A stretch of DNA of 64,000 bases from a virus (taxonomy: Duplodnaviria > Caudoviricetes). A program made the position numbers and the translations under genes. Shown in pieces: positions 6,784 to 50,671 of the stretch. The stretch lies in IMG/VR virus record IMGVR_UViG_3300029798_000001; one strand, written 5' to 3'. A model generated the notes under the pieces. The model was not told where the DNA came from. It saw only the letters and a list, made by a program, of their open reading frames with translations, and searched no databases. Numbering within the stretch: position 1 is the stretch's first letter; each line of letters opens with the position of its first letter.

Positions 6784-7743
6784 ATGCCAACATGTTTAGA
6801 GTGCGGGTATTCAGCCCCAAGATTACAGTGGACACACTTCAAATACAAATGTACCGGAAAATTCAAAAACGGTAATGAGTATATGTCCGCACACCCCGGT
6901 AGTGAGATAATAGATCCAGAATTAAAGAAAAAATACGGGTTTACACTTGACTCGGCTGTCAAAAAGTATGGTGCTGTGGAAGGTCAAAAACGATGGAATG
7001 AGTATTGTGATGCGCAGGCAACCACTAATACTTTTGAATACAAACATGAAAAATACGGTTGGACCCGTGAACAGTTTGACGAGTACAATTCATCAAGAGC
7101 AGTAACCATTGCAAACATGATCAAACGACATGGTGAAGAAATTGGAGTTGCTAAATGGCAAGAATATTGCGAACGACAAGGATATACCAATACCAAAGAA
7201 TATTTTATTGAAAAGTACGGTGCAATCATTGGCGTTAAAAAATATATTGAGGTTAACAAGAAAAAGAAAAACCCACACGACCCGGTGAGTATTTCTGAAA
7301 AATTAGGAATTACCTTGGACGAGGCGGTAGACATTATCTTGTCGAGAGAAAATTCTGGAAGAAGATATATTAGTAATCTTGAAGAAGAATTTACAAACAT
7401 GCTTGAAGATAAAGTAGGACCACTTGACTATACCTCAGCTAAACGACCATTTGGCAAATGGTCTCATTTATTGAATACCTATGTTGTATATGATATAAAA
7501 CACGGCAATTGCATTATTGAATTCAATGGTGATTACTGGCATGCTAATCCCAACATTTATGCTGGCACCGCTACAATAAGAGGTGTCCCGGCGGTTGATA
7601 TATGGCGCCAGAATGTGTTAAAATTACAAACAGCACAGGATTTGGAATTCAAAACCCTAGTGGTTTGGGAAACAGAATTTCGAAATGATAAAGTTGGAAC
7701 AATTAATAAGGTAGCAGAATGGATATTACAAGAACAACCGTAA
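6784..7743 (+). mobile_element. Free-standing Vsr-like (PD-(D/E)xK) homing endonuclease between the split polymerase halves
   Basis: C-terminal YDIK..IIEFNGDYWHANP...VVWE; N-terminal CxxC..H..C; internal repeats K[YH]G...G..[KR]W.EYC..Q..TNT.EY..EKYG. Confidence 0.8.
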
Positions 7744-36774: not shown

Positions 36775-37081
36775 AATAAGGTAAATACTAGACCGTGGAA
36801 CAGCAAAAGAAACCCGTTAACCAGTATTACTATTCCGAAAAAGAATGGGCAAGATTGGGTTGTGGCCCGTTGCCCGACGAGCGTGATCGTTCTAAATTAC
36901 TAGATGCTCATGCAAAAGGTAATCCAAAGGTTGACAATAATATAGTAAAAGGATATAATTAACGATCATGATATGGTTAGCTATTTTTATTATCGGCGCT
37001 GTTGCAATGTATTTGTTAATTGAGCTAAAAGATTGGCTCGACAATGATCAGTAGTTAAAATTTAAAAGGAAGTATAGTAAA

Positions 37082-37382: not shown

Positions 37383-37994
37383 ATGAGAGTAAAGAATTTT
37401 GAGGTCGATTTAGATTCTGTAGAAGATTGCCAAAAGCTAATTAATCGACTTAAAAGTAATATAGGCGAACTTCGAATATTAACACACGGCTCTAAAAAGC
37501 AAAGAGTCCGTTCTGTATTTGAAGCTTGTCAAAAGATATACAATACCGATATCAGCGACTTGTATCGTCATTTAGATTTGGATCCAAACCCGATTTATTA
37601 TGTCTATACACATTCGGAACCTTCTAAAAAGATTGCTATAGGCAAAAACGGTATCAGTACTTTTGCGGCGACATTAGGAATGGAGTTAATTCCGTTCTAT
37701 GTAGGCAAGGGTGTTGGCGATAGAGCTTACGATTTAAACCGCAACGAGACGCATCGTAAAGTAAGACAAAAACTTCAGCAGTTCGGGCAGGAAGTATCTG
37801 TTAAAATATTAAAATCTGGACTTACTGAGATGGGAGCATTAATATTAGAATCTAAATTAATCGATATGTTCGGACTAATAGCTTCGGGCGGTAAATTAGT
37901 AAATTTGGACGAAGGTGTAAATAGTAAAGAACGACGCTTAAAATATAAAGACGAGCTTCGTGAGATAAGTATGTTATATAAGAATTCTGTCTGA
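37383..37994 (+). mobile_element. GIY-YIG endonuclease adjacent to tmRNA
   Basis: YYVY...PFYVGKG..DR...E..LI..FG....LVN; own early promoter at 37348-37377. Confidence 0.7.
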
Positions 37995-38335
37995 AGTTAG
38001 ACTGAAAGCTATGCAAGACGCGGAGTGGTGCCCGCCACCTCCACCACAAGCATACTGTGATGCGTTACCCAGCGTGAAGTTAAGAGGGTGAAAACAGTAT
38101 GCTTTTGATGGGGGTGTATAATCCTTTCGATTGTGTAGGAAGTAAGAATAATTAGGAATCGGTAGGCGATGACCGTATAAATCAAGCAAATCTCGTAAAT
38201 GCAAACGCAAATACAGGCGAAGTAACTGTTTCGGGCAAGGGCGTTAAGTTCTCTGCTCGTACAGCGAAAGCCGAATCTTTCGCAGTTTAATCACCGCGAT
38301 TGCGGAGTTATCCGTAGAAACAGAAAATAACAGAT
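37981..38335 (+). ncRNA. ssrA: Circularly permuted (two-piece) tmRNA
   Basis: Acceptor piece ends CACCTCC-ACCA (38046); hairpin spacer; coding piece starts GGGGGTG (38110) giving G3:U70; CTATGCAA pairs with TTGTGTAG; tag ORF 38201-38290 ANANTGEVTVSGKGVKFSARTAKAESFAV. Confidence 0.85.
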
Positions 38336-40283: not shown

Positions 40284-41027
40284 ATGAAAAAAGTACTATT
40301 AGCAATTCTTGCTCTGGCTGGCATTACCGCGGCTCACGCTCAGGTAACTGGCAATTTAGGGTTAGCTTCTGACTACCGCTTCCGTGGTATCAGTCAAAGC
40401 CAAAATGCTCCTGCTGTTCAGGGCGGCGTTGACTATGCTCACTCTAGTGGTTTGTATATTGGTAACTGGAACTCATCAGTTTCTAGCCAAGTATATACAA
40501 ATGGCGCTGGTGTTGAGTCTGACTTGTACGCAGGTTGGAAAAAAGATATTTACAAAGGTCTGACATTGGATGTTGGTTCTTATAACTATTTCTATCCTCG
40601 TGCTACAGCAGCAAAAACTGGTTCAAACTTTGATACTTATGAAGCATTCTTAGGTTTAGGGTATGGTCCTTTAGCTGTTAAGTATAGCCAAACACTGGGC
40701 AACGGTTACTTCGGTACTGTTAATGCCAAAAACTCAAACTACACAGGTGCTGATGTAAATCAATCCTTTGAGCCACTAAGTGATACGTTGAAAGACTTGA
40801 GCTTCCTAGCTCACTATGGTCATACTTCGGTTGCTAATAGTTCTAACTTAAACTACAACGACATGAATGTTGGTCTAGGTTATGTATTGCCAAAAGATTG
40901 GAATATTGCTGCCAGGTACTATACTAATAGTTCAATGACCAGCACTTTCCAAAATGCTAACAATGTAAATGGACAGAAACTTTACAAAAATGCAGTTGTC
41001 GCAACATTGACAAAAACATTTGAATAA
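40284..41027 (+). CDS. TorF-family (TIGR02001-like) putative porin
   Basis: Signal peptide; SDYRFRGISQS..PAVQGG.DY.H.SG.Y.G.W.S, E.DLY.G; terminal KTFE. Confidence 0.85.
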   Translation: MKKVLLAILALAGITAAHAQVTGNLGLASDYRFRGISQSQNAPAVQGGVDYAHSSGLYIGNWNSSVSSQVYTNGAGVESDLYAGWKKDIYKGLTLDVGSYNYFYPRATAAKTGSNFDTYEAFLGLGYGPLAVKYSQTLGNGYFGTVNAKNSNYTGADVNQSFEPLSDTLKDLSFLAHYGHTSVANSSNLNYNDMNVGLGYVLPKDWNIAARYYTNSSMTSTFQNANNVNGQKLYKNAVVATLTKTFE

Positions 41028-41043
41028 TTATTCAATGTAACCA

Positions 41044-41069
41044 AAAAGGGCTCTTCGGAGCCTTTTTTT
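41044..41069 (+). terminator. Intrinsic terminator
   Basis: AAAAGGGCTC-TTCG-GAGCCTTTTTTT. Confidence 0.85.
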
Positions 41070-41149
41070 ACGGCTGGTTGACCTTATACACTAACTAGTA
41101 TATACTGAGCACTTAGTTAAAAATATTTTAGGAAATTAGCAAATATAGG

Positions 41150-41804
41150 GGTTGACAAAGTATAAATAACCCTACATATGAAACGAGCAATAATTCTAGG
41201 ATGTAGTCACGCAGCCGGTACCGAAATAGATAATGGCCGTACCTGTAGTTACCCAGTTAAAATTGCAGAACAGCTAGGATACACTCCGGAAAATTATGCC
41301 ATTGCCGGTGGCAGTAATGATGCGATGTTTCGCATATATGAAGAACAACACCCAAGTCTTGATAGTGCTGATATAATTATAGCCTGTTGGTCTGGCTACA
41401 ATCGTACAGAGATTTGGAATGATAAAATCAAAAACTGGCAAGCTCTTGCTCCCGGTAAAACAGATGTGGCGCCAAAGGAATACTTAGACTATCAACAGCA
41501 ATGGGTCACATACCATACCAATGATCATATTGGTCGTTTAAACAAAATTAAAAATATTATTGCGTTAAACACATTGGCTCAACAACAACATGTTCCGGTT
41601 GTTAATGTTGACAGTTTCTGGCCTGTACATAATTTTATATGGCCCAACTCGATTCAGTGGCCAATGACGGTTGACTTTTGGGAGTGGTGCAGTTATAATA
41701 ACTATCCAAAGACAGCGTGGGGACACTTTTTTGAACCTGCCCATAAAGAATTCGCAGAAATTGTTGTAAAAAGTGTAAAACCCAGGTTGACAAAGTATAA
41801 ATAA
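41150..41804 (+). repeat. 20-bp direct repeat of a dual early/late promoter flanking one gene
   Basis: GGTTGACAAAGTATAAATAA at 41150-41169 and 41785-41804. Confidence 0.9.
41178..41804 (+). CDS. SGNH-like hypothetical protein
   Basis: LGCSH, AIAGGSN, terminal GHF...AH. Confidence 0.55.
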   Translation: MKRAIILGCSHAAGTEIDNGRTCSYPVKIAEQLGYTPENYAIAGGSNDAMFRIYEEQHPSLDSADIIIACWSGYNRTEIWNDKIKNWQALAPGKTDVAPKEYLDYQQQWVTYHTNDHIGRLNKIKNIIALNTLAQQQHVPVVNVDSFWPVHNFIWPNSIQWPMTVDFWEWCSYNNYPKTAWGHFFEPAHKEFAEIVVKSVKPRLTKYK

Positions 41805-41824
41805 ACCTATATAATAACACTATT

Positions 41825-42037
41825 ATGAAACATTTAAACACTCATTCTTATTGTGTAGCGATAACAGGGAAACAGCCCGCGCCAGCCAATTGGCTCAGCA
41901 TCGAGGCATTATCCTTTACAAGTATTCGCGGCACAGATATTAATAGAATGGATTCAGAGGGTTGGGATGATTAGATAATAACATTATAATTTAATCACAC
42001 AACCCTGGAACTAAACACTCCGGGGTTTTTTATTTTA
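41825..42037 (+). promoter_or_regulatory. Candidate transcription attenuator: 49-aa leader, antiterminator and terminator
   Basis: Leader ORF 41825-41974; AGGGTT..TGATTA pairs with TAATCA..AACCCT, which overlaps terminator CCCTGGA/TCCGGGG + T-run. Confidence 0.65.
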
Positions 42038-42047
42038 AGGAAAGGAT

Positions 42048-42227
42048 TTATGCAGACAGATTATACAAAATTGAACGATCGTATTGTGAAGCAGGCGTAT
42101 GAAGTAGCTAACTTGACACTGAGTGAAGAACTCAAGACGAGACTGTTTCAGAATAAGATTGATCGTGCAGTTGCTATACTAAGGGCAAGAGAATTAAGCC
42201 CAGCGTTTAGTAGAAGCGAGTACTAAG
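42048..42227 (+). CDS. Small hypothetical protein MQTDYTKLNDRIVKQ...
   Basis: AAGGA RBS; 59 codons open; first ORF after the attenuator. Confidence 0.45.
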
Positions 42228-42420
42228 ATCAAGTAGTAAGTGTTATAGGAAACGAGATCCTTAACTCACTATAAAAAGTTTAAATGGGCGGCCAGTATGA
42301 TGAATCTCCTTGTGTGGAGTGAAAAACTACTGCGTATTAAAGCACATAGTATAGCGACTAAGCTATCACAGAAATGTGTAACTATGTGCTTTAATACACG
42401 CATTCCAAAGAGTGCGTTAT

Positions 42421-42509
42421 GGGCGCTGTTCTCACCGGGGGACTGTAAATCCCTTGCCTTAATATGGTGAGTGGTCGGCGATTAGGTTCAATTCCTTCAG
42501 TGCCCACCA
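42421..42509 (+). tRNA. Atypical tRNA-Tyr(GTA)-like RNA lacking a normally placed D-arm
   Basis: GGGCGCT/AGTGCCC acceptor, 9-nt linker, GGGGA-CTGTAAA-TCCCT arm, AGTGGT segment after the variable arm, TTCAATT loop, ACCA. Confidence 0.6.
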
Positions 42510-42517
42510 TTATATTC

Positions 42518-42562
42518 ATTGACGAGTTGAATGAGTAGGTTCGAATCCTACTGTCAGCACCA
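42518..42562 (+). pseudogene. tRNA minihelix/remnant (acceptor + T arm only)
   Basis: TTGACG/TGTCAG, GTAGG-TTCGAAT-CCTAC, ACCA. Confidence 0.5.
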
Positions 42563-42568
42563 AATATT

Positions 42569-42643
42569 GCCCTATTATCCTTAATGGTAGAGGTCCTGTT
42601 TTGTAATCAGGGTGTGGAAGTTCGATTCTTTCATGGGGCACCA
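42569..42643 (+). tRNA. tRNA-Thr(TGT)
   Basis: Cloverleaf, TT-TGT-AA loop, ACCA. Confidence 0.9.
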
Positions 42644-42773
42644 GATTATTGTTGTTTTTAGCAACAGAATGAATCGGTTGACCCAAAATGGGTAATAGCA
42701 TATAATAGTTGTATATTAAGTAATAAAGTTCATTAACAATTTGAGTAGAATATAAGCACCCTGGGAAGGGTCA

Positions 42774-43008
42774 CCATATTGAAGCATATTACTAACTATG
42801 GCTGGAGACCGACGGGCCTGTACGGTAGTTGATAGTATGTTTCAATATGGTGAGTCGGACAAACGTGTATGGACAACCGGGTAACTGGGGCTAATCCTAC
42901 ACACCGACACCATATTGAAGCATACTGCACTGAGTCGCTATCAGGCAGGAACATAGGGTTTGATCACCCGGGTAGGTTCGAATCCTACTGTAGTGTGTTT
43001 CAATATGG
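42774..43008 (+). repeat. Two copies of a long spacer stem CCATATTGAAGCATA.../...TGTTTCAATATGG
   Basis: 42774-42850 and 42910-43008; the second encloses a tRNA-like fold with a GTAGG-TTCGAAT-CCTAC T arm. Confidence 0.8.
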
Positions 43009-43084
43009 TAAGGTGGCCGAGGGGACCAAGGCAAGTGACTGCAAATCTCTACAACCGGGGGTTCGAATCCCTCTCTTACCTCCA
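43007..43084 (+). tRNA. tRNA-Cys(GCA)
   Basis: CT-GCA-AA loop, TTCGAAT, TCCA. Confidence 0.9.
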
Positions 43085-43199
43085 GAGCATTCCCGATCTA
43101 CTGAACTGGAAAACGGACAGTAAGTGGGAATCAAGTCCGGAATGCAAGCGCGGACCTAGGCACTAAAAAGGCCCTAGGCAACATGCTTCCCATAAATTT

Positions 43200-43276
43200 G
43201 GTTTGTTAGTCGAGTTGGTTAAGACGCCTGCCTGTCACGCAGGAGACCAGGGGTTCGAGTCCCCTACAGACCGCCA
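43200..43276 (+). tRNA. tRNA-Asp(GTC)
   Basis: CT-GTC-AC loop, GCCA. Confidence 0.92.
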
Positions 43277-43280
43277 AATT

Positions 43281-43775
43281 GCTCTCATCGTCTAGAGGCC
43301 TAGGACATCACCCTCAAGTGGTTGACAGCAGGGATAAATACTGTTTATGAGAGCTAAAGATTTTGTAGATATGCAACCGCAAACAAATCTACATGATTTG
43401 ACCCTTGCAGCATGGGTTTTTTATTCTACTACACCCGACAATGTTGACATTGACTTAAAATCTGAACCAATTGATAAATTTATTCCGCAGGCAAAAGGAA
43501 TATGGAATCATTTTAAGAAACAAATCGGCGAGAAGAGAAAAGTAGAGAGTATGATATCAACAATAAAAGCCAATATACCTTTCTCTCTTCCTGTATATGT
43601 TAAATTTAATGATCCTACTTTATACGTAGTAGAAGGAAGGCATCGATTATGCGCTTACTGGTTATCTGGAGCAAAAACTATTCCTGTTGCTTACGTGAAA
43701 CCTATAAGTCAAGATGGATCAAACTTAGTTAAAGCACCGCCTCTGGCACGCTAGGTTCGATCCCTGAGACCGCCA
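43281..43775 (+). pseudogene. tRNA-Glu-type gene split by an inserted ORF
   Basis: 5' half GCTCTCA-TCGTCTAGAGGCCTAGGACA-TCACC (43281-43315); 3' half AGGTTCGATCCC-TGAGACC-GCCA (to 43775). Confidence 0.65.
43347..43754 (+). CDS. ParB/Sulfiredoxin-like domain protein with an MRAKDF N-terminus
   Basis: YVVEGRHRL.AY...G...IPV motif; GATAAATA late promoter. Confidence 0.65.
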   Translation: MRAKDFVDMQPQTNLHDLTLAAWVFYSTTPDNVDIDLKSEPIDKFIPQAKGIWNHFKKQIGEKRKVESMISTIKANIPFSLPVYVKFNDPTLYVVEGRHRLCAYWLSGAKTIPVAYVKPISQDGSNLVKAPPLAR

Positions 43776-43784
43776 AAGTTTTAT

Positions 43785-43859
43785 ACAGCCATCGTCTAAC
43801 GGTTAGGACACCTGGTTTTCATCCAGGCAATCGGAGTTCGATTCTCCGTGGCTGTACCA
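43785..43859 (+). tRNA. tRNA-Glu(TTC)
   Basis: TT-TTC-AT loop, ACCA. Confidence 0.92.
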
Positions 43860-43869
43860 GTTTTACAAT

Positions 43870-43945
43870 CGCAGGGAGGGTCCGGTCACCAGCGGGGTCT
43901 CATAAGCCTTTGCCGTCCTTGGTTCAAATCCAAGCCCTGCAACCA
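43870..43945 (+). tRNA. Initiator tRNA-fMet(CAT)
   Basis: C1:A72 mismatch, G-rich anticodon stem, CT-CAT-AA. Confidence 0.8.
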
Positions 43946-43951
43946 AACAAT

Positions 43952-44027
43952 TCCGCAGTAGCTCAGTTGGTAGAGCGCAAAACTGTTAATTTTGATGTCC
44001 GAGGTTCGAGACCTCGCTGTGGAGCCA
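43952..44027 (+). tRNA. tRNA-Asn(GTT)
   Basis: CT-GTT-AA loop, GCCA. Confidence 0.92.
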
Positions 44028-44034
44028 AAACAAA

Positions 44035-44122
44035 GGAAGGTTGGCAGAGTGGTCGATTGCGTCAGTCTTGAAAACTGAAGGCTGTAACAGGTCCGTGAGT
44101 TCGAATCTCACACTTTCCTCCA
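44035..44122 (+). tRNA. tRNA-Ser(TGA)
   Basis: CT-TGA-AA loop, long variable arm. Confidence 0.92.
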
Positions 44123-44254
44123 GTATAGACCTCTAGGAGCCGGGTCCGGCGGTTAAGCTCTTAACCTAGTAAAATAAACAAGAGTGAGTTCTGCCAGTAA
44201 CTTTCAGTAGGATAAAAGTGTAGCTTGCTACTACTTCACTGGCAACTAATTTAA

Positions 44255-44341
44255 GGAGAGTTGGCCGAGCGGTAAGGCAACAGATTGCTAATCTGTCATT
44301 GGGTAACCGGTGGATAGGTTCGATTCCTATACTCTCCACCA
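44255..44341 (+). tRNA. tRNA-Ser(GCT)
   Basis: TT-GCT-AA loop, long variable arm. Confidence 0.92.
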
Positions 44342-44346
44342 GTAGT

Positions 44347-44420
44347 GCGGGTATGATGAAAAGGTATCCTGAATCCTTGCCAAGGATTATTTGAGAGTTC
44401 GATTCTCTCTACCCGCTCCA
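44347..44420 (+). tRNA. tRNA-Gly(GCC)
   Basis: TT-GCC-AA loop, TCCA. Confidence 0.9.
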
Positions 44421-44426
44421 AACAAC

Positions 44427-44504
44427 GGGTCTGTATGCCGCTTGGCTTCGAACCAAGAGAAAGCTAATGGATACATGCAGGTTCGACCCCTGTCAGACCC
44501 TCCA
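44427..44504 (+). tRNA. Atypical tRNA-Arg(TCG)-like RNA lacking a normally placed D-arm
   Basis: GGGTCTG/CAGACCC acceptor, 7-nt linker, CTTGG-CTTCGAA-CCAAG arm, AGCTAATGGAT segment, T arm, TCCA. Confidence 0.6.
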
Positions 44505-44507
44505 AGT

Positions 44508-44683
44508 TTTGTAAGTGTAGATGTTGAGAAAGTACAGTCCGCAAGACTGTATGAGAGGACGGTACAAGCCCGACCAAATGATAGCTACTCAAGTATCAAC
44601 TATCACTACGTACCTCTGTACCGGGCGCCCTAGTATTAACGGTTAAAATGATAGCGAATGAGTGAGGCGCTATTACTTACAAA
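44508..44683 (+). ncRNA. Candidate ncRNA enclosed by a TTTGTAAGT/ACTTACAAA stem
   Basis: Terminal 9-bp stem; internal hairpin TACAGTC-CGCAA-GACTGTA. Confidence 0.4.
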
Positions 44684-44692
44684 TTAATCAAT

Positions 44693-44894
44693 ATCCCTCC
44701 GTAAAGGATGTAGTAAGGAGCTCTCAGTTCCCTGTATGGTGAAGTAGTAGTTGATCCGAATCGCTCCTTGGTCGGAGTAGATGGTGATACTAAACGCTTC
44801 GTAAACTAAGAAAGTAAAGTCTAACCAACTGCACAATCTTAATACATATAAAGCTCTCCCGAATAACAGTGGTGAAAATCCACAAGGGATGCCA
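44693..44894 (+). ncRNA. Candidate ~200-nt RNA with tRNA-like termini
   Basis: ATCCCT/AGGGAT acceptor-like stem, GTGG-TGAAAAT-CCAC T-like arm, GCCA end. Confidence 0.5.
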
Positions 44895-44895
44895 C

Positions 44896-44974
44896 ACCCG
44901 GTTAGCTCAGTTGGTTTAGTAGCATTCGCTTGATAAGCGAAAGGTCCCTAGTTCGAGTCTAGGACCGGGTACCA
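44896..44974 (+). tRNA. tRNA-Ile(GAT)
   Basis: TT-GAT-AA loop, ACCA. Confidence 0.92.
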
Positions 44975-44981
44975 GTATTAT

Positions 44982-45055
44982 GAGTCTCAAGTGTTACGGT
45001 AGCACATCAGCCTCCAAAGCTGAGGGCCGGGGTTCGACTCCCTGGAGATTCGCCA
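44982..45055 (+). tRNA. tRNA-Trp(CCA)
   Basis: CT-CCA-AA loop, GCCA. Confidence 0.92.
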
Positions 45056-45061
45056 GTCAAT

Positions 45062-45110
45062 GGCGTGGGTAGCAAGGAAAGATAGGTTAAGCCCTAGACC
45101 TGCGTCGCCA
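45062..45110 (+). pseudogene. tRNA minihelix/remnant
   Basis: GGCGTGGGT/ACCTGCGTC stem, TAGG-TTAAGC-CCTA arm, GCCA. Confidence 0.45.
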
Positions 45111-45132
45111 AATTAACTTAAGAAAGAACCAA

Positions 45133-45606
45133 ATGAAGTTCAATATTCCACACATAACACAATTTATAGAAGCGCAAGGTCCAAACACTCGTATCTATAT
45201 TGGTGTGGATTCAGAACGTGTTCGCGGTCATGATAAGCAATGGCAAGCGATATACACTGCGGCTATTGTTGTACATATTAATGGTAACAACGGCTGTAAG
45301 TTATTTGGTGAGGTTACTCGTGAACGAGACTACGACCGAGTCGATAAGCCTAATACTCGCTTGATGACCGAAGTGTTCAAGGTAAGCGAACTGTATTTAA
45401 AACTTGCAGAAGTCTTAGAAGGTCGTGCTGTTGAGGTTCATCTTGATCTGAATCCAGACGAGCATCACGCTAGCTCTAATGTGGTGGCACAGGCTATTGG
45501 ATACATCCGCGGCACTTGTAATGTAGAGCCATTGGTTAAACCAAATGGATTTGCCGCAAGTTATGCTGCTGATAGAATGAGAGGTTTGCAGGTTGCTAAC
45601 GGGTAG
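45133..45606 (+). CDS. RNase H-like YkuK/DUF458-family protein
   Basis: IYIGVDS, RLMTEV, EVHLDLN, VKP..FAASYAAD. Confidence 0.75.
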   Translation: MKFNIPHITQFIEAQGPNTRIYIGVDSERVRGHDKQWQAIYTAAIVVHINGNNGCKLFGEVTRERDYDRVDKPNTRLMTEVFKVSELYLKLAEVLEGRAVEVHLDLNPDEHHASSNVVAQAIGYIRGTCNVEPLVKPNGFAASYAADRMRGLQVANG

Positions 45607-45665
45607 ACGCATTTTAATATTTTAATGCGTCTACCAATCATAAATAAACATAACAGGAGAGTATT

Positions 45666-46286
45666 ATGTTATGCGACTATGGTTGTAGTAAAGAAGCTAA
45701 GTTTACCCTTAAAAACGGAAAAAACTGTTGTAGTAAACGCCCGGCTGGATGCGAAGTGTTAAAGAAAATCAATGCCGATAAAGTAGCATTATCGCACAAA
45801 GAAGGCAGGCACGGGTATACTTACAATCCCAAAAGCAATTGGGCAAAAGGAAAAACCAAACTCGATGATAATAGAATTGGTAGTAGCTATAATCCAGATA
45901 CTCTATTTTCTTATGGTGAAAAGAACTTAGGCTCTATTGTTAGAAAACAAACTCTTATTAAAGAGCGTGGTCATAAGTGCGAATGTTGTAAATTAGAATT
46001 ATGGTTGGATACTCCTATTACCTTAGAACTCGATCATATTGACGGTGATAACAAAAATAATGTCAGAGACAATCTGAGACTATTGTGCCCTAATTGTCAT
46101 TCTAAAACTCCAACTTGGAGGAAGAGAAAGGCACCCGGCGGCAATTCCAAACATAGTGAAGATGCAATGTTAGTTGCAATTAAACAATCGGCTAATATGA
46201 ACGAAGTATTAAAAAGGTTAAATTTAAAGTGGGGTAGCTCTAGCACAATTGCAAGATTGATGTTAAAATATAATTTGAACTTTTAG
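45666..46286 (+). mobile_element. HNH homing endonuclease within the tRNA array
   Basis: CECC..ELDHIDGD..NN...NLRLLCPNCH; CATAAATA promoter; 11-bp hairpin upstream. Confidence 0.85.
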
Positions 46287-46291
46287 TAATT

Positions 46292-46377
46292 GGGGGAGTG
46301 ATGAAATTGGTAGACTTCCGGTCCTTAGAAGTCCGGGTCCTATGGGCGTGTCGGTTCGAGTCCGACCTTCCCCACCA
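46292..46377 (+). tRNA. tRNA-Leu(TAG)
   Basis: CT-TAG-AA loop, variable arm, ACCA. Confidence 0.88.
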
Positions 46378-46384
46378 TAAACAA

Positions 46385-46459
46385 GGGCCGTTAGCTTAAT
46401 GGTAAAGCGGAGAACTCATAATTCTAGGAGTGCTAGTTCAATTCTAGCACGGCCCACCA
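46385..46459 (+). tRNA. tRNA-Ile2/Met(CAT)
   Basis: CT-CAT-AA loop, ACCA. Confidence 0.85.
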
Positions 46460-46468
46460 AGTAGTAAT

Positions 46469-46553
46469 GCGACTGTGATGAAATTGGTATACATAGAAGA
46501 TTTAAAATCTTCCGGCGCAAGCCATGGCGGTTCAAGTCCGCCCAGTCGTACCA
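46469..46553 (+). tRNA. tRNA-Leu(TAA)
   Basis: TT-TAA-AA loop, variable arm. Confidence 0.92.
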
Positions 46554-46554
46554 T

Positions 46555-46628
46555 GCGGGGTTCGTATAGTGGTAATACCCTAGCCTTCCAAGCTAGAGCT
46601 GAGGGTTCGATTCCCTTACCCCGCTCCA
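46555..46628 (+). tRNA. tRNA-Gly(TCC)
   Basis: CT-TCC-AA loop. Confidence 0.92.
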
Positions 46629-46638
46629 TTTTAAATTT

Positions 46639-46713
46639 GGGGGATTAGTGCTAATGGGAACACATCTGGTTTGCAACCAGAAATTGAGAGTTCGATTCTC
46701 TCATCCTCCACCA
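46639..46713 (+). tRNA. tRNA-Ala(TGC)
   Basis: TT-TGC-AA loop, G3:U70. Confidence 0.92.
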
Positions 46714-46719
46714 AACAAT

Positions 46720-46794
46720 CTCAGTGTCGGCAAGTGGCATGTCACTCGCTTTGGGAGCGAGATTTCGAGTGTTCGATTCACTCCACTGAGACCA
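46720..46794 (+). tRNA. tRNA-Pro(TGG)
   Basis: TT-TGG-GA loop. Confidence 0.9.
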
Positions 46795-46800
46795 AACAAT

Positions 46801-46874
46801 TGAGATATAGTGTAACGGCAGCACCACTCCCTTTGACGGAGTTAGTCTAGGTTCGAGTCCTAGTACCTCTACCA
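46801..46874 (+). tRNA. tRNA-Gln(TTG)
   Basis: CT-TTG-AC loop. Confidence 0.88.
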
Positions 46875-46877
46875 AAT

Positions 46878-46952
46878 GCCTCGTTAAGTAAACGGTTATA
46901 CTGCCCTCCTTACAAGTGGGTCTTGGTGGTTCGATTCCATCACGAGGTACCA
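46878..46952 (+). tRNA. tRNA-Val(TAC)
   Basis: CT-TAC-AA loop. Confidence 0.88.
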
Positions 46953-46987
46953 AGCAACTTTAGCAAGGATGATTACGAAAAGATTTT

Positions 46988-47066
46988 GCGAGGTGAGCTA
47001 GTCTGGTGATTTCAGCGTATGCCTGAAGAGCATAAGAACTAGGTTCGATTCCTAGACCTCGCACCA
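46988..47066 (+). tRNA. tRNA-Phe(GAA)
   Basis: CT-GAA-GA loop. Confidence 0.9.
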
Positions 47067-47150
47067 AGTTTTAGAGTTTTGTCGCAAGACCTGTCCAGAC
47101 CCTTGACGCACTGTAACCATTCAGACCCGTAGGGAAAGACTCTAAATTAT

Positions 47151-47240
47151 GCCCGAGTGGACGAATTGGTAGAGTCACTTCTCTCAAAAGGAAGAAGGCA
47201 AAACGCTTAGTTGAGGGTTCGAATCCCTCCTTGGGTACCA
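47151..47240 (+). tRNA. tRNA-Leu(CAA)
   Basis: CT-CAA-AA loop, variable arm. Confidence 0.92.
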
Positions 47241-47241
47241 C

Positions 47242-47315
47242 GCTCTTATAGGTAAGTGGCATACCATATCCTTGGTAAGGATAAATCACAAGTTCGATTC
47301 TTGTTAAGAGCACCA
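47242..47315 (+). tRNA. tRNA-Thr(GGT)
   Basis: TT-GGT-AA loop. Confidence 0.9.
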
Positions 47316-47342
47316 CTCAATGGGGTCATTAGTGACAATAGG

Positions 47343-47418
47343 GGTAACCATAGTGTAAAATTGGCACCCAACTCTGTGAAAGTTGTAGTCTGAGTGAGAC
47401 TTCTCAGTGGTTACCCCT
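47343..47418 (+). tRNA. tRNA-His(GTG), no encoded CCA, nested in an extended stem
   Basis: G-1:C73 pair, CT-GTG-AA loop, atypical T loop TGAGACT; outer TGACAATAGG/CCTATTGTCA stem. Confidence 0.7.
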
Positions 47419-47455
47419 ATTGTCATACTCACTAAAGATTTTTAAAGGAGTTGTT

Positions 47456-47692
47456 ATGGATTATACACCACGGATTGCTAAAGCAGATTTAGTGCATGGT
47501 GCATATTATCAAGGTCGTTGCCGTAATGCAACTATCGCTCGCTGGAATGCCGACGATGAACAATTTTATCATTGGCGTTATAAGTTTGGTTGGTTTGTAG
47601 ATACAATCTGTCACCCAGAGGACGAGCAAGACTTTGATGTGTTTGTAGTAGAGGCTCCTTGTGAGCCAGAAAAAGAAATACCATTCGATTAA
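47456..47692 (+). CDS. Hypothetical protein
   Basis: AAGGAG RBS, ATG 47456. Confidence 0.6.
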   Translation: MDYTPRIAKADLVHGAYYQGRCRNATIARWNADDEQFYHWRYKFGWFVDTICHPEDEQDFDVFVVEAPCEPEKEIPFD

Positions 47693-47703
47693 GGAGAAGT
47701 GAA

Positions 47704-47886
47704 ATGAAACCAAGAAATCCCTTTGCCATAGTGGTAAAGAAAAGGAAGGCGGGCTCGCACCGCAAGAGCACCAAAGCTCTAAGAAAGCAGGCTAAACAAT
47801 CGGGGTATGGTGAAATGGTATCACATGGCACTTTTAATGCTTCGTTCAGAGTTCAACTCTCTGTGCCCCGACCAAGTTTATATTAA
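47704..47886 (+). CDS. Short basic ORF (ArfA-like composition) running in frame through tRNA-Lys
   Basis: AAGGAG RBS; MKPRNPFAIVVKKRKAGSHRKSTKALRKQAKQ; no stop before the tRNA 5' end at 47801. Confidence 0.5.
   Translation: MKPRNPFAIVVKKRKAGSHRKSTKALRKQAKQSGYGEMVSHGTFNASFRVQLSVPRPSLY
47801..47874 (+). tRNA. tRNA-Lys(TTT)
   Basis: CT-TTT-AA loop, ACCA. Confidence 0.85.
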
Positions 47887-47916
47887 AGCATACTGTTCAG
47901 TGTATTTTAATATAAA

Positions 47917-47991
47917 CTGCCGATAGTTCAACGGATAGAACATAGAGCTTCTACCTCTAGAATGTGGGTTCGATTCCTGCTCGGCAGACCA
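47917..47991 (+). tRNA. tRNA-Arg(TCT)
   Basis: CT-TCT-AC loop. Confidence 0.92.
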
Positions 47992-47992
47992 C

Positions 47993-48069
47993 GGAAATGT
48001 AGCATAGTGGCTTAATGCAGTTGCTTCATACGCAACCTATCGTAGGTTCGAATCCTACCATTTCCACCA
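47993..48069 (+). tRNA. tRNA-Met(CAT), elongator type
   Basis: TT-CAT-AC loop. Confidence 0.85.
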
Positions 48070-48131
48070 GATTGACAAGTTTTACCAATTGTAGTATAAT
48101 GTATTATTAACCATAAAGAAAGGAGGCTAAT

Positions 48132-48701
48132 ATGCCATCAGTATGGTTATATTCAGATCCGCACTTTTCCCATCAAGGGGTGTGTAGGTTCCTGCGAGCA
48201 GATGGAGTGACCAAACTCCGTCCTTGGGACACCGCAGAAGAGATGGACGAAGAACTTGTTCGTAAATTTAACGAAACAGTTGGTCCTAACGACAAAGTGT
48301 ATATGCTGGGAGATATTGCGTTTAAGCGTAGTCATATCCGCATCTTAGAGCGTCTAAACTGTAAGGACCTGGTCCTTATCAAAGGTAATCACGATGTAGA
48401 AGACCTTAAACTCTACTCGCAATACTTCCGCGATATCCGTGCTTATCATATTATGGATAACTACTTGTTATCACATATTCCCATCCACCCAGAAAGTTTG
48501 AGTAGATGGAAAGGTAACTGGCACGGTCACACACACGCCAACAGCGTTATGCGGGATCTCGCCACTGCCGGTCGTCCCAATGTTGTCGATCCAAGGTATA
48601 TGTGCTTGTGCGTTGAGCAAACTGACTTCCGCCCAATCTTGTTTGAACGGGCACGAGATCGGTTTAATGAACAGATGGAACTAAGCCGGCAGCCTTTGTA
48701 G
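48132..48701 (+). CDS. Calcineurin-like metallophosphoesterase
   Basis: SDPHF.H, LGDI, GNHD, SH.P, HGH.H. Confidence 0.9.
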   Translation: MPSVWLYSDPHFSHQGVCRFLRADGVTKLRPWDTAEEMDEELVRKFNETVGPNDKVYMLGDIAFKRSHIRILERLNCKDLVLIKGNHDVEDLKLYSQYFRDIRAYHIMDNYLLSHIPIHPESLSRWKGNWHGHTHANSVMRDLATAGRPNVVDPRYMCLCVEQTDFRPILFERARDRFNEQMELSRQPL

Positions 48702-48835
48702 TGCGTCCGCGGCTCCACTCAGGACCCGGACTGTCTTTAGACATTTTAATTGTAGTTCCGTAATGGTAATGGCCCTGCAATGTAGTTGACAAGCATAGTA
48801 GGATTATGTTATAATGTAATTTTACAGGAGAAGTT

Positions 48836-49063
48836 ATGAAACCAAGAATCGCAAGTCGTGGTCCAGAAATTGACATGGAAAAATGTGTACAGCAAGCCGG
48901 TGGCGGACGCTATGATATGGTTCTAATTGGCGCACAACGCCTACGTGAACTCAAACGTATCCATCGTGAAGATACTAGCCGTTATGTAACCTGCGTAGAT
49001 GCACTACATGAGATTCAAGCAGGACAGGTTAATTTAGTTGACTATTTGGCTAAAGTAAAATGA
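48836..49063 (+). CDS. rpoZ: RNA polymerase omega subunit-like protein
   Basis: GGRYDMVLIGAQR.REL ... AL.EI.AG. Confidence 0.75.
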   Translation: MKPRIASRGPEIDMEKCVQQAGGGRYDMVLIGAQRLRELKRIHREDTSRYVTCVDALHEIQAGQVNLVDYLAKVK

Positions 49064-49403
49064 CACGCAAAGATACACTTGATCGAGCGTATGGACAGGT
49101 TCCTAAAGAGATTCCAGATCCGTTTAGTTGGACTGATGAATTTTTGCCTCGCTCTTTAAAGTATTTTTGGTTAAAATGGATTGTAAGAAAATTTTTTAGA
49201 TAGGAATTAAAATGTCAAAACCAAAACAAACAGCAAGCGATAGAGATCGTACATTATCCGGACAATGGTCAAAGACCGAAAAACGGGCCCACATTAGTCG
49301 TCAGATGATGGCGAGTAAGCTGCGCACCCATGCCGCTATCAAGGCATTCAAGCAAGGGTTATTTCTAAATAAGTAACTTAGTTAAAAGATATGAAGTTAA
49401 TAT

Positions 49404-49495
49404 AGTGAGTTGGATGAGTGGCTTAAATCGGCACCCTGCTAAGGTGTTGTATATAGAAATATGTACCGTGGGTTCAAATCCCACACTCACTGCCA
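49404..49495 (+). tRNA. tRNA-Ser(GCT), second copy
   Basis: CT-GCT-AA loop, long variable arm, GCCA. Confidence 0.9.
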
Positions 49496-49564
49496 GTATT
49501 TAGGAGAGCTACACCCTCCGCCAAGTAATATTGAGTAATAAATAAATTTTTAGATGGTGGTCCG

Positions 49565-50323
49565 ATGAATATAGGATTTTTTGGCGACAGTTATGTCGAC
49601 ATGATATGGCACAGATTTACCAATGTTAGGCCACTAGTACCACCGGATCAAATATCATGGTGTGAGCGGTTACTTAAAGATTTTAATGCTCCATTTATAT
49701 GTTCAGGTCTGGGCGGCAGCAGTCAATATCATGCCATTGCAGAATGGCAACATTTTTCTCAAAAATACAAGTTCGATGTGGCTATTTTTACTTTTACCTG
49801 GGATCATCGACTTTACGCCGCCACTAAACAAACTGAACGAATTTTAACCGCTAACATAGAACAAAGAGATATAGAATTAGCCACCCAATTGGACGAAGAA
49901 ATTCAAGTGGCATTGAATCACTATTATTCCAAGTTAGCCAGCAGAGAATCTAATAAATTTTGTTATGCGCTAATGGTCAAATGGATATTGGAGTTGCCAG
50001 AGCAGTACCCTGATACCAAATTTATTTTTTTACCCAATACTGTAGATTCTCAAAATATGTCAAAAAAATATTTTGACCAAGGAGTATTGGTTGATTTTGC
50101 ATTTGAAGTACTAACCGAAGCCGAAGGTGAACGAGTTGGTGTGCGGCCATTTATTCCGAATCGTGTTGGACATTTGAGCGGGAACACTCACGAAAAAGTC
50201 AACACTATGATCAAAGATATCATAGTAAATTATGATTCTTATAAAAATAAAATTTTTCTCGTAAACTATGATCGTTTTGAACTAAAAACAATCTATACAA
50301 ATTTTTACCCCGACCAACAATAA
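49565..50323 (+). CDS. SGNH-like hypothetical protein
   Basis: FFGDSY, GLGGSS, GHL. Confidence 0.5.
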   Translation: MNIGFFGDSYVDMIWHRFTNVRPLVPPDQISWCERLLKDFNAPFICSGLGGSSQYHAIAEWQHFSQKYKFDVAIFTFTWDHRLYAATKQTERILTANIEQRDIELATQLDEEIQVALNHYYSKLASRESNKFCYALMVKWILELPEQYPDTKFIFLPNTVDSQNMSKKYFDQGVLVDFAFEVLTEAEGERVGVRPFIPNRVGHLSGNTHEKVNTMIKDIIVNYDSYKNKIFLVNYDRFELKTIYTNFYPDQQ

Positions 50324-50353
50324 AAATAAGTACTAGTCAACATAAGGAATATC

Positions 50354-50563
50354 ATGGCAAGCAATAAAACAGGTCAAAAGAGTCGTAAAGCAGATCCAAT
50401 GCGTACCAAGAATGGCAAAGAACGTTTGGGTCCATTGAATCTAGCACAGTTGGAAAAGTTGTTGACTAACGCTCGTAAAAAGACTGCACCAAAAATTGCC
50501 CGCAGGATTGCAGTAATCAAAGGCCGCCCAGGTTTCGTCGAAAAAGAAGTTGTAGCAGAGTAA
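50354..50563 (+). CDS. Small basic hypothetical protein
   Basis: AAGGA RBS; ORF track. Confidence 0.55.
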   Translation: MASNKTGQKSRKADPMRTKNGKERLGPLNLAQLEKLLTNARKKTAPKIARRIAVIKGRPGFVEKEVVAE

Positions 50564-50585
50564 TATGGTGGAGTCGGTAGTAACT

Positions 50586-50671
50586 ATGCCCTGGTCACAT
50601 AGTGGGATTGTAGCTGATTTGTAATCAGCCCGGAAACGAGAGGGTGTTCGATTCACCCCCAGGGCATGCCA
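50586..50671 (+). tRNA. Atypical tRNA-Thr(TGT) with a long variable arm and extended acceptor stem
   Basis: ATGCCCTGG/CCAGGGCAT 9 bp; TT-TGT-AA loop; 12-nt variable region; GCCA. Confidence 0.7.

Follow-up and report, generated by a model that had tools for sequence, protein, structure and literature searches.

The attenuators of amino-acid operons include those with the leaders trpL, hisL, leuL, thrL and pheL as well as the multivalent ilv leaders. T-box riboswitches (RF00230), in turn, bind uncharged transfer RNA (tRNA) directly, have a specifier loop and a T-box sequence, and need no open reading frame (ORF). To our knowledge, bacterial tRNA genes are thought to be controlled at their promoters (growth rate, ppGpp) and not by attenuation, and the regulation of large phage tRNA repertoires is essentially unknown. 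Here we analysed a stretch of 64,000 nucleotides (nt) of phage DNA (Duplodnaviria; Caudoviricetes; IMG/VR record IMGVR_UViG_3300029798_000001), hereafter called the window, in which a promoter, a 49-codon leader ORF and an intrinsic terminator precede a large array of tRNA genes. Our results suggest that this unit heads the phage tRNA array as a ribosome-dependent (leader-peptide) transcription attenuator, with read-through on slow decoding, and we put the probability of this reading at roughly two in three (0.68). Sequence comparison established the features on which it is based, namely a conserved ORF, mutually exclusive RNA structures, the placement of the leader stop, the link to tRNA arrays and a match between leader and tRNA repertoire. 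A first-pass annotation, made from the letters of this DNA alone, had proposed a leader-peptide attenuator that gates the tRNA array, and each structural element of that proposal is now backed by comparative evidence (the ORF, a covarying antiterminator and tRNA genes in 67/67 loci).

The locus resembles the amino-acid operon attenuators in having a short, putatively translated leader ORF and, ahead of the regulated genes, an intrinsic terminator and an antiterminator that exclude each other. Furthermore, a ribosome at the leader stop would cover the 5' strand of the antiterminator and favour termination, and the leader codons relate to the product that would be controlled. However, the output of the phage element is tRNA genes and not biosynthetic enzymes, its leader samples many or all amino acids once, with no single-residue repeats, it lacks a Shine-Dalgarno sequence (the messenger is leaderless or has a leader of 3 nt) and its setting is a phage. 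It also differs from the trp attenuator in that no region-1 pairing was found, and an untranslated phage leader should read through, not super-attenuate. In mycobacteria, cysteine-responsive control of translation has been reported for polycysteine leaderless short ORFs (Canestrari et al., bioRxiv 10.1101/834739). Like these, the phage leader would be a leaderless short sensory ORF, first in its operon, on which ribosome progress remodels the RNA that controls the downstream genes; unlike these, it would switch between an intrinsic terminator and an antiterminator, its codons are mixed and its output is tRNA. With the T-box it would share a terminator/antiterminator switch that senses the tRNA pool and acts on genes for decoding, but in the phage element a reading frame is conserved, and Rfam gave no match, T-box or other, in 41800-42050 at E <= 1.

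The class of mechanism is that of the classical leader-peptide attenuator; the phage element departs from it in its tRNA output, its leader of many amino acids that mirrors the repertoire, its leaderless start and two-state design, and its occurrence in a phage. The annotation had known of no described attenuator of a phage tRNA cluster, and in a limited full-text literature search we likewise found no published description of an attenuator ahead of tRNA genes. If the reading is true, there is a direct feedback from decoding speed to tRNA supply by way of a leader that samples the phage's own tRNA set, and the attenuation paradigm, fifty years old and built on amino-acid synthesis, would reach the machinery of decoding as well. 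The question of why phages carry tRNAs would also be touched, with codon-usage compensation, host tRNA shut-off and defence by tRNA cleavage as the proposals at issue. The element is compact (~250 nt) and self-contained, and could be of use as a synthetic sensor of translation capacity.

Conservation of the leader frame and of two alternative structures

Relatives of the unit were collected in two ways. An anchor search with the 58-residue ORF that follows the terminator gave 13 more diverged loci, and the 16 loci in total were not selected for a leader ORF. A metagenome scan with a degenerate terminator pattern gave at least 120 loci, with ~97 distinct units, on contigs of freshwater jumbo phages, that have the promoter; the pattern fixed part of the terminator stem, and the ORF, the promoter, the 5' arm of the antiterminator and the downstream genes were not selected for. 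All 16 anchor-found loci have an ORF of 27-53 codons, with its start 6-11 nt past the -10 box and 25-31 nt between its stop and the terminator arm. In the metagenome set, an ORF of 25-53 codons with its start 6-11 nt past the -10 box was kept in 94/97 distinct units, and the stop codon lies 28-38 nt ahead of the GGAA core of the terminator in 94/97. All three stop codons are used across these 94 units, and the +1 frame of the leader is never open in them, against 14% of the time for a shuffled interior. The ratio of non-synonymous to synonymous polymorphism (pN/pS) was 0.28-0.49 in four subfamilies, with the third codon position the most variable. The conservation of frame, start and stop over such distances, together with a pN/pS below 1, is a strong but indirect sign that the leader frame is read. 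Conservation of the leader in related phages had been named by the annotation as a way of checking its proposal, and it was found in both sets. Only three units, L022, L033 and L093, depart from the pattern: one lacks a start, one runs through the terminator (57 residues), and in one a stop directly follows the ATG. Decay of the copy or an assembly error may account for them.

The peptides themselves are far less uniform. They form 18 clusters at 50% identity, with lengths of 25-53 residues, and are nearly unalignable between clusters. No Pfam or PHROG family was found for the leader or for the 58-residue ORF, and no Rfam family for the leader region.

The promoter is shared by the whole family: GGTTGACA, the 17-nt spacer and the -10 box are conserved in 94/94 members, and TAAATA is conserved within the spacer in 84/94 units. 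The annotation had described a dual promoter. Its sigma-70 part stood, with a 12/12 match to the consensus; the second part, TATAAATA, is a conserved motif and only possibly a second, T4-late-like promoter. The window has no excess of TATAAATA boxes (4 found vs 6.3 expected). All four (4523, 25482, 41161 and 41796) are on the + strand, at 8-80 nt ahead of an ORF start, which would be in keeping with a T4-late-type class of promoters in the phage. The leader ORF in the window has no Shine-Dalgarno sequence. Its transcript is expected to start ~3 nt ahead of the ATG, judging from the distance of the latter to the -10 box, which gives a predicted 5' untranslated region (UTR) of ~3 nt. In 66/94 units the ATG stands 6-7 nt past the -10 box, at the expected start site, and those messengers would therefore be truly leaderless.

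The end of the leader takes part in an extended hairpin that competes with the terminator. The 5' arm of this antiterminator (41958-41976, AGGGUUG..UGAUUAGAU) contains the last five codons and the stop codon, and its 3' arm (41989-42006) ends in CAACCCU (42000-42006), which is the 5' arm of the terminator. The terminator stem in turn is formed by AACCCUGGA (42001-42009) with UCCGGGGUU (42019-42027). The annotation had paired AGGGTT and TGATTA with TAATCA and AACCCT; the first three elements were recovered where it had put them (41958-41963, 41968-41973 and 41992-41997), while AACCCT lies at 42001-42006, one base to the left of its placement. That this helix overlaps the 5' arm of the terminator was borne out, and the shared bases are 42001-42006.

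The minimum free energy (MFE) fold of the window RNA (-54.8 kcal/mol, z = -4.2 vs shuffles) has the extended hairpin, which sequesters the 5' arm of the terminator. The same hairpin, not the terminator, was also found in the MFE fold of one relative, whereas the consensus fold of three variants is the terminator, not the extended hairpin. When nascent RNA was folded, at least 4/8 core nt of the terminator 5' arm paired around the stop codon in 94/94 units, and 6-8 core nt were sequestered in 65/94 units vs ~20% of shuffled controls (mean dG -20.2 vs -10.7 kcal/mol). The antiterminator was more stable than the terminator in 76/86 units (mean -18.8 vs -14.5 kcal/mol), and cognate antiterminator arms paired 5.5 kcal/mol better than non-cognate arms from diverged relatives. 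For the terminator, 99.7% of cells are paired across 86 sequences, part of the stem being fixed by the search pattern. Judged by these folds, antiterminator and terminator are real, competing alternative structures.

Covariation was tested on a MAFFT alignment and on a covariance-model alignment of 93 sequences (alignments A5 and A6). Column-wise covariation in the MAFFT alignment was above all shuffles. In the covariance-model alignment, compensatory changes were found in 10/14 antiterminator pairs, with 177 doubly changed cells vs 58 in shuffles. The antiterminator covariation score was 0.336 vs 0.170 in shuffles, of which 0/500 reached it, and at most 0.132 in slid controls; the covariation that the annotation had asked about in related phages is thus present. 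The overlap of the two structures comprises 7-8 nt of the terminator 5' arm, and the variable C/U of this shared arm stays compatible with its partner in both, which argues that both folds are under selection. The features described stand above chance: the same architecture comes back, with covariation, in ~97 distinct units from relatives.

The antiterminator 5' arm holds the stop codon, and in 91/94 units its outermost nt is 7-18 nt ahead of the stop. The terminator 5' arm begins ~25-31 nt past the stop. Ribosomes cover ~15 nt to each side of the A site, and one that stands on the stop or the codons just before it would thus occlude the antiterminator 5' arm and not the terminator; this geometry fits the expectation, taken by the annotation from trp and his attenuators, that a ribosome at the leader stop favours termination. 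A trp-type three-structure attenuator (1:2, 2:3, 3:4) was dropped for lack of a cognate-specific region-1 pairing. With the 5' end and the ORF middle as candidates for region 1, pairing to the antiterminator 5' arm differed by +0.2 kcal/mol between cognate and non-cognate partners (positive control -5.5), and prefix folds were not consistent from one subfamily to another. The switch therefore looks two-state, with read-through as the default.

Some side observations concern the same structures. In the window, the covariance model matches 41948-42032 only, and a generic scan for a promoter, a near-leaderless ORF and a U-run found only the leader cassette. One relative, L051, has a second, weaker model match (7019-7095, - strand, 32.7 bits) at the contig end, 4.7 kb upstream of its main cassette and in the same orientation; in some relatives the cassette may occur in more than one copy. 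The terminator loop ACUAAACAC (window 42010-42018, family alignment A4) shows unusual conservation, which extends to the loci collected with the neighbouring gene and not with the terminator pattern. Terminator loops are normally not conserved, and this one might be a protein or RNA contact. In the 36-codon subfamily (e.g. L023, L030 and L031), UUCCAGGAG just upstream of the antiterminator can pair with the terminator 3' arm CUCCGGGG, so that both terminator arms would be sequestered in the read-through fold.

Leader composition and the proposed switch

The annotation had reported a 49-residue ORF with all 20 amino acids, and this holds for 41825-41974. Such content is found in 4% of random 49-mers of this phage's composition and is a weak feature alone. 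Across the family, however, leaders were more diverse than expected: the mean number of distinct residues per leader was 17.2 vs 15.8-16.2 in three nulls, and all 20 amino acids occurred in 13/86 distinct leader peptides vs 0.4-0.8 expected, including peptides of 33 and 35 residues. Of the 18 clusters, 14 exceeded the predicted amino-acid diversity (Wilcoxon p = 0.0016). Leaders use rare residues more than expected (Cys 2.6x, Trp 1.55x, Met 1.5x) and common ones less; Trp is present in 99% of leaders (52% expected) and Cys in 91% (32% expected).

The amino-acid sets of the leaders mirror the tRNA repertoire behind them, which is supportive of the attenuator, not conclusive. Among 12 cluster representatives, 5 tRNA-specified amino acids were missing from their own leader vs 15.3 with permuted leaders (0/5000), and the match between leader and repertoire had a Fisher-combined hypergeometric p of 0.0024. 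The codons of the leader also fit. The fraction readable by the locus's own detected tRNAs was 0.735 vs 0.563 in the other genes of the locus, and it was higher in the leader in 14/14 loci (~7 independent clusters). In the large 36-residue subfamily, Asp, His and Tyr are absent from both leaders and arrays. The window agrees with this: its leader has all 20 amino acids, and ARAGORN finds tRNAs for 19 of them in the array behind it. A general rather than single-amino-acid sensor had been suggested by the annotation, and our results both support and sharpen that suggestion, the leader sets being unusually diverse and mirroring the downstream repertoire.

The link to tRNA genes is constant. Wherever at least 600 nt of downstream DNA was available (67 loci), tRNA genes on the same strand followed within 2 kb (median 317 nt), and in two loci the first tRNA begins 33-34 nt past the terminator. 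The ~30 tRNA genes that the annotation saw following the leader are indeed a large same-strand array, though ARAGORN counts 27 downstream. In ~half of the peptide clusters (L008-L021 and many metagenome loci), homologues of the small protein (51-59 residues) stand between the terminator and the tRNAs, with a strong Shine-Dalgarno sequence and a start 14-22 nt past the terminator. One branch has the N-terminal motif DYTKLNDRIVKQAY. This protein would be the first product of read-through.

We infer translation of the leader, the direction of the switch and the physiological signal from this layout. The very strong promoter would give an RNA with its first codon at or within ~3 nt of the 5' end, and the 49-codon leader would be translated while RNA polymerase moves on. 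If no ribosome is over the end of the ORF when polymerase is at the terminator, the antiterminator, which would form first and is also predicted to be more stable, would allow read-through into the 58-residue ORF and the tRNA genes. If a ribosome keeps pace and is on the last codons or the stop, the antiterminator would be blocked, the terminator would fold and the transcript would end near 42036. Since the leader holds every amino acid for which the phage has a tRNA, in codons read by those tRNAs, the device probably measures the decoding speed of the phage's codon set, which would put tRNA supply under negative feedback. Probably, then, the phage makes more tRNAs only when ribosomes slow on the leader, and the best reading is that transcription of both the tRNA array and the small ORF is coupled to the speed at which the leader is decoded. 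Depletion of host tRNAs or their cleavage by anticodon nucleases, which the annotation had offered as the trigger, is compatible with the attenuator, though speculative. In its most far-reaching form, the model is a closed-loop 'tRNA-stat', in which a leaderless test ORF with one or a few codons per phage tRNA gauges tRNA sufficiency through ribosome speed and sets array transcription by a two-state switch. This would be an undescribed attenuator class with tRNA output, and we give it somewhat better than even odds.

Four RNA or possibly-RNA runs were searched over 41000-44000; all consisted of contigs, mostly matching tRNA genes of other organisms. In one run, two short, low-depth contigs cover 41786-41887 and 41824-41887.

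Evidence against the attenuator and alternative explanations

Several observations weigh against the attenuator or limit its scope. The metagenome set was fished with a terminator pattern, and the conservation of the terminator is in part ascertainment. The repertoire tests used partial arrays (at most 8 kb) and related sequences, and were devised after the data had been seen. Efficient translation of a messenger with no Shine-Dalgarno sequence and so short a 5' UTR is an assumption. Furthermore, the gate is not exclusive. Besides the near-consensus promoter at 42678-42706 there are consensus promoters at 48072 and 48786 in the window, and in many relatives the small ORF past the terminator is itself followed at once by a strong promoter, indicating that the gate would be partial; in ~half of the loci, tRNA genes also lie upstream, no more than 2 kb away. 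Finally, the middle of the ORF differs among the closest relatives (98, 82 and 80% identity in a protein word search) by 9-10 non-synonymous vs 1-2 synonymous codon changes, mostly radical. No nucleotide differs between close relatives in the promoter, the first 60 nt or the last 70 nt, and this combination of a variable middle with identical flanks indicates a strong constraint on the RNA and a weak one on the peptide. The neighbouring 58-residue ORF, by contrast, differs mainly at third positions among close relatives. Taken with the distant conservation of the frame, the leader therefore appears to be read while its peptide is weakly constrained, as expected of a leader peptide.

It was this pattern among the closest relatives that at first favoured a pure non-coding small RNA (sRNA) as the sole explanation, which was dropped on the distant conservation of frame, start and stop and on the pN/pS below 1. 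A milder version is that the unit is mainly an sRNA gene, whose promoter-to-terminator transcript of ~210 nt acts in trans, the ORF being incidental or secondary. A consensus promoter, a transcript of this length and an intrinsic terminator are the classic layout of such genes, the fold is strong (the z-score given above), the 5' and 3' thirds are invariant among close relatives while the middle varies, and trans-acting sRNAs derived from attenuators, such as rnTrpL, are known (PMC6614838). However, frame, start and stop positions are kept through length changes from 25 to 53 codons, variability follows codon position, no Rfam family was matched, and the mirroring of leader and tRNA amino acids would be left unexplained; we consider this version improbable. 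Slightly less improbable in our view is that the ORF simply codes for a small phage protein and has a promoter and a terminator of its own; the long hairpin would then stabilise the 3' end, and the overlap would have no regulatory meaning. Some constraint at the amino-acid level (pN/pS as above), the near-constant Trp and Cys and C-terminal motifs common to subfamilies would be accounted for in this way. But a plain terminator would be disabled by an antiterminator that forms first and is the more stable in 76/86 units, and the overlap itself covaries. The peptides cannot be aligned well from one cluster to another and match neither Pfam nor PHROG, the G-run that pairs with the CCC of the terminator falls on their C-terminal Gly codons, and the unit is tied to tRNA arrays in 67/67 loci though its upstream neighbours vary.

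Two further alternatives accept a real attenuator and change what it controls or what it senses. Its chief target could be the small protein past the terminator (58 residues here), with the tRNAs transcribed mainly from internal promoters of their own; although unlikely, this ranks highest among the alternatives. The homologous ORF with its strong Shine-Dalgarno sequence, close behind the terminator in ~half of the clusters, speaks for it, as does the strong promoter behind that ORF, 176-182 nt past the terminator in L020, L021, L042, L084 and L129 and 647 nt past it in the window. However, large subfamilies have no such ORF and their tRNA genes start 33-230 nt past the terminator, there is no terminator between the small ORF and the tRNAs in the window, and leader composition tracks the tRNA repertoire. 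Least probable of all, and by our estimate very unlikely, is a nascent-peptide or ligand sensor of the TnaC/SecM type, in which the near-invariant Trp and nearby residues arrest the ribosome on a small-molecule signal and so set the RNA fold. Trp mostly stands 12 or 17-19 residues from the C-terminus, a spacing that would place it within the exit tunnel with the ribosome at the stop, and there is some peptide-level constraint. Yet the spacing from Trp to the stop ranges over 3-34 residues, no TnaC or SecM motif is kept across the 18 clusters, and the terminator here is intrinsic, not Rho-dependent; the rise of rare Cys, Trp and Met with the fall of common residues is what sampling 'one of each amino acid' predicts. 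The sRNA role and the small-ORF role could also coexist with attenuation.

Features of the window and neighbouring genes

The positions of the element and of the genes behind it are collected in the table.

Table. Coordinates of the proposed attenuator and its downstream genes in the window
Feature	Position	Strand	Details
Sigma-70 consensus promoter	41787..41815	+	TTGACA 41787-41792, 17-nt spacer, TATAAT 41810-41815; 12/12 match
TATAAATA box in promoter spacer	41796..41803	+	Possible second, T4-late-like promoter; putative function
Leader ORF	41825..41974	+	49 codons and TAG (41972-41974); ATG 9 nt past -10 box
Antiterminator hairpin	41958..42006	+	MFE folds, covariation, cognate-arm pairing
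Intrinsic terminator	42001..42036	+	GC-rich stem of 9 base pairs, 9-nt loop, U-tract to 42036; consensus fold
Strong Shine-Dalgarno sequence (AAGGAAAGGA) and 58-residue ORF (42050-42226)	42037..42226	+	Directly behind terminator
tRNA gene array	42569..50667	+	27 tRNA genes (ARAGORN), Rfam tRNA matches; few protein genes interspersed
Internal near-consensus promoter TTGACC-17-TATAAT	42678..42706	+	11/12 match; after first tRNA genes

The window is part of an uncultured jumbo phage from lake water, and its long ORFs are nearly all on the + strand. ARAGORN finds 29 tRNA genes in it in total. Its relatives are found in freshwater metagenomes, from lakes and ponds among others, on contigs of up to 230-344 kb. 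By DNA polymerase (~50% identity), the nearest cultured relatives are the PA5oct-like Pseudomonas jumbo phages. The region shares only tRNA matches with cultured phages (megablast, blastn); the 281-nt element had no match in them at E <= 10, and the 58-residue ORF no tblastn match. Ahead of the PA5oct tRNA array there are two tandem promoters, and neither a leader ORF nor a terminator was found there. A permuted transfer-messenger RNA (tmRNA) gene lies at 37983-38290 in the window, 3.5 kb upstream of the attenuator (Rfam RF04321, 60.7 bits vs a gathering score of 47), and the phage thus has a broad translation toolkit.

Shortly upstream of the proposed attenuator, the window has a glnK-amtB-porin module. 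The upstream neighbours differ between relatives and may be the porin gene, a gene for 208 residues or a radical-SAM gene. The 208-residue gene (window 41178-41804) sits within a partial duplication of the leader promoter: TTGACAAAGTATAAATAAC..., with the -35 and the TATAAATA box, is repeated at 41152 (41152-41180) and continues directly into the ATG of this gene. It is present in the window and in L006 and not in L002-L005 and L007, where the promoter directly follows the porin gene. It has hundreds of metagenome homologues and no Pfam family, gave no match when used as an anchor in viral contigs, and looks like a mobile or recently inserted gene. Elsewhere in the window, a second perfect consensus promoter lies at 36931-36959, with an ATG 8 nt past its -10 box. 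The ORF behind it codes for a hydrophobic peptide of 28 residues and is not followed by a terminator. This region (36931-37054) may hold a further leaderless small ORF, perhaps for a membrane peptide.

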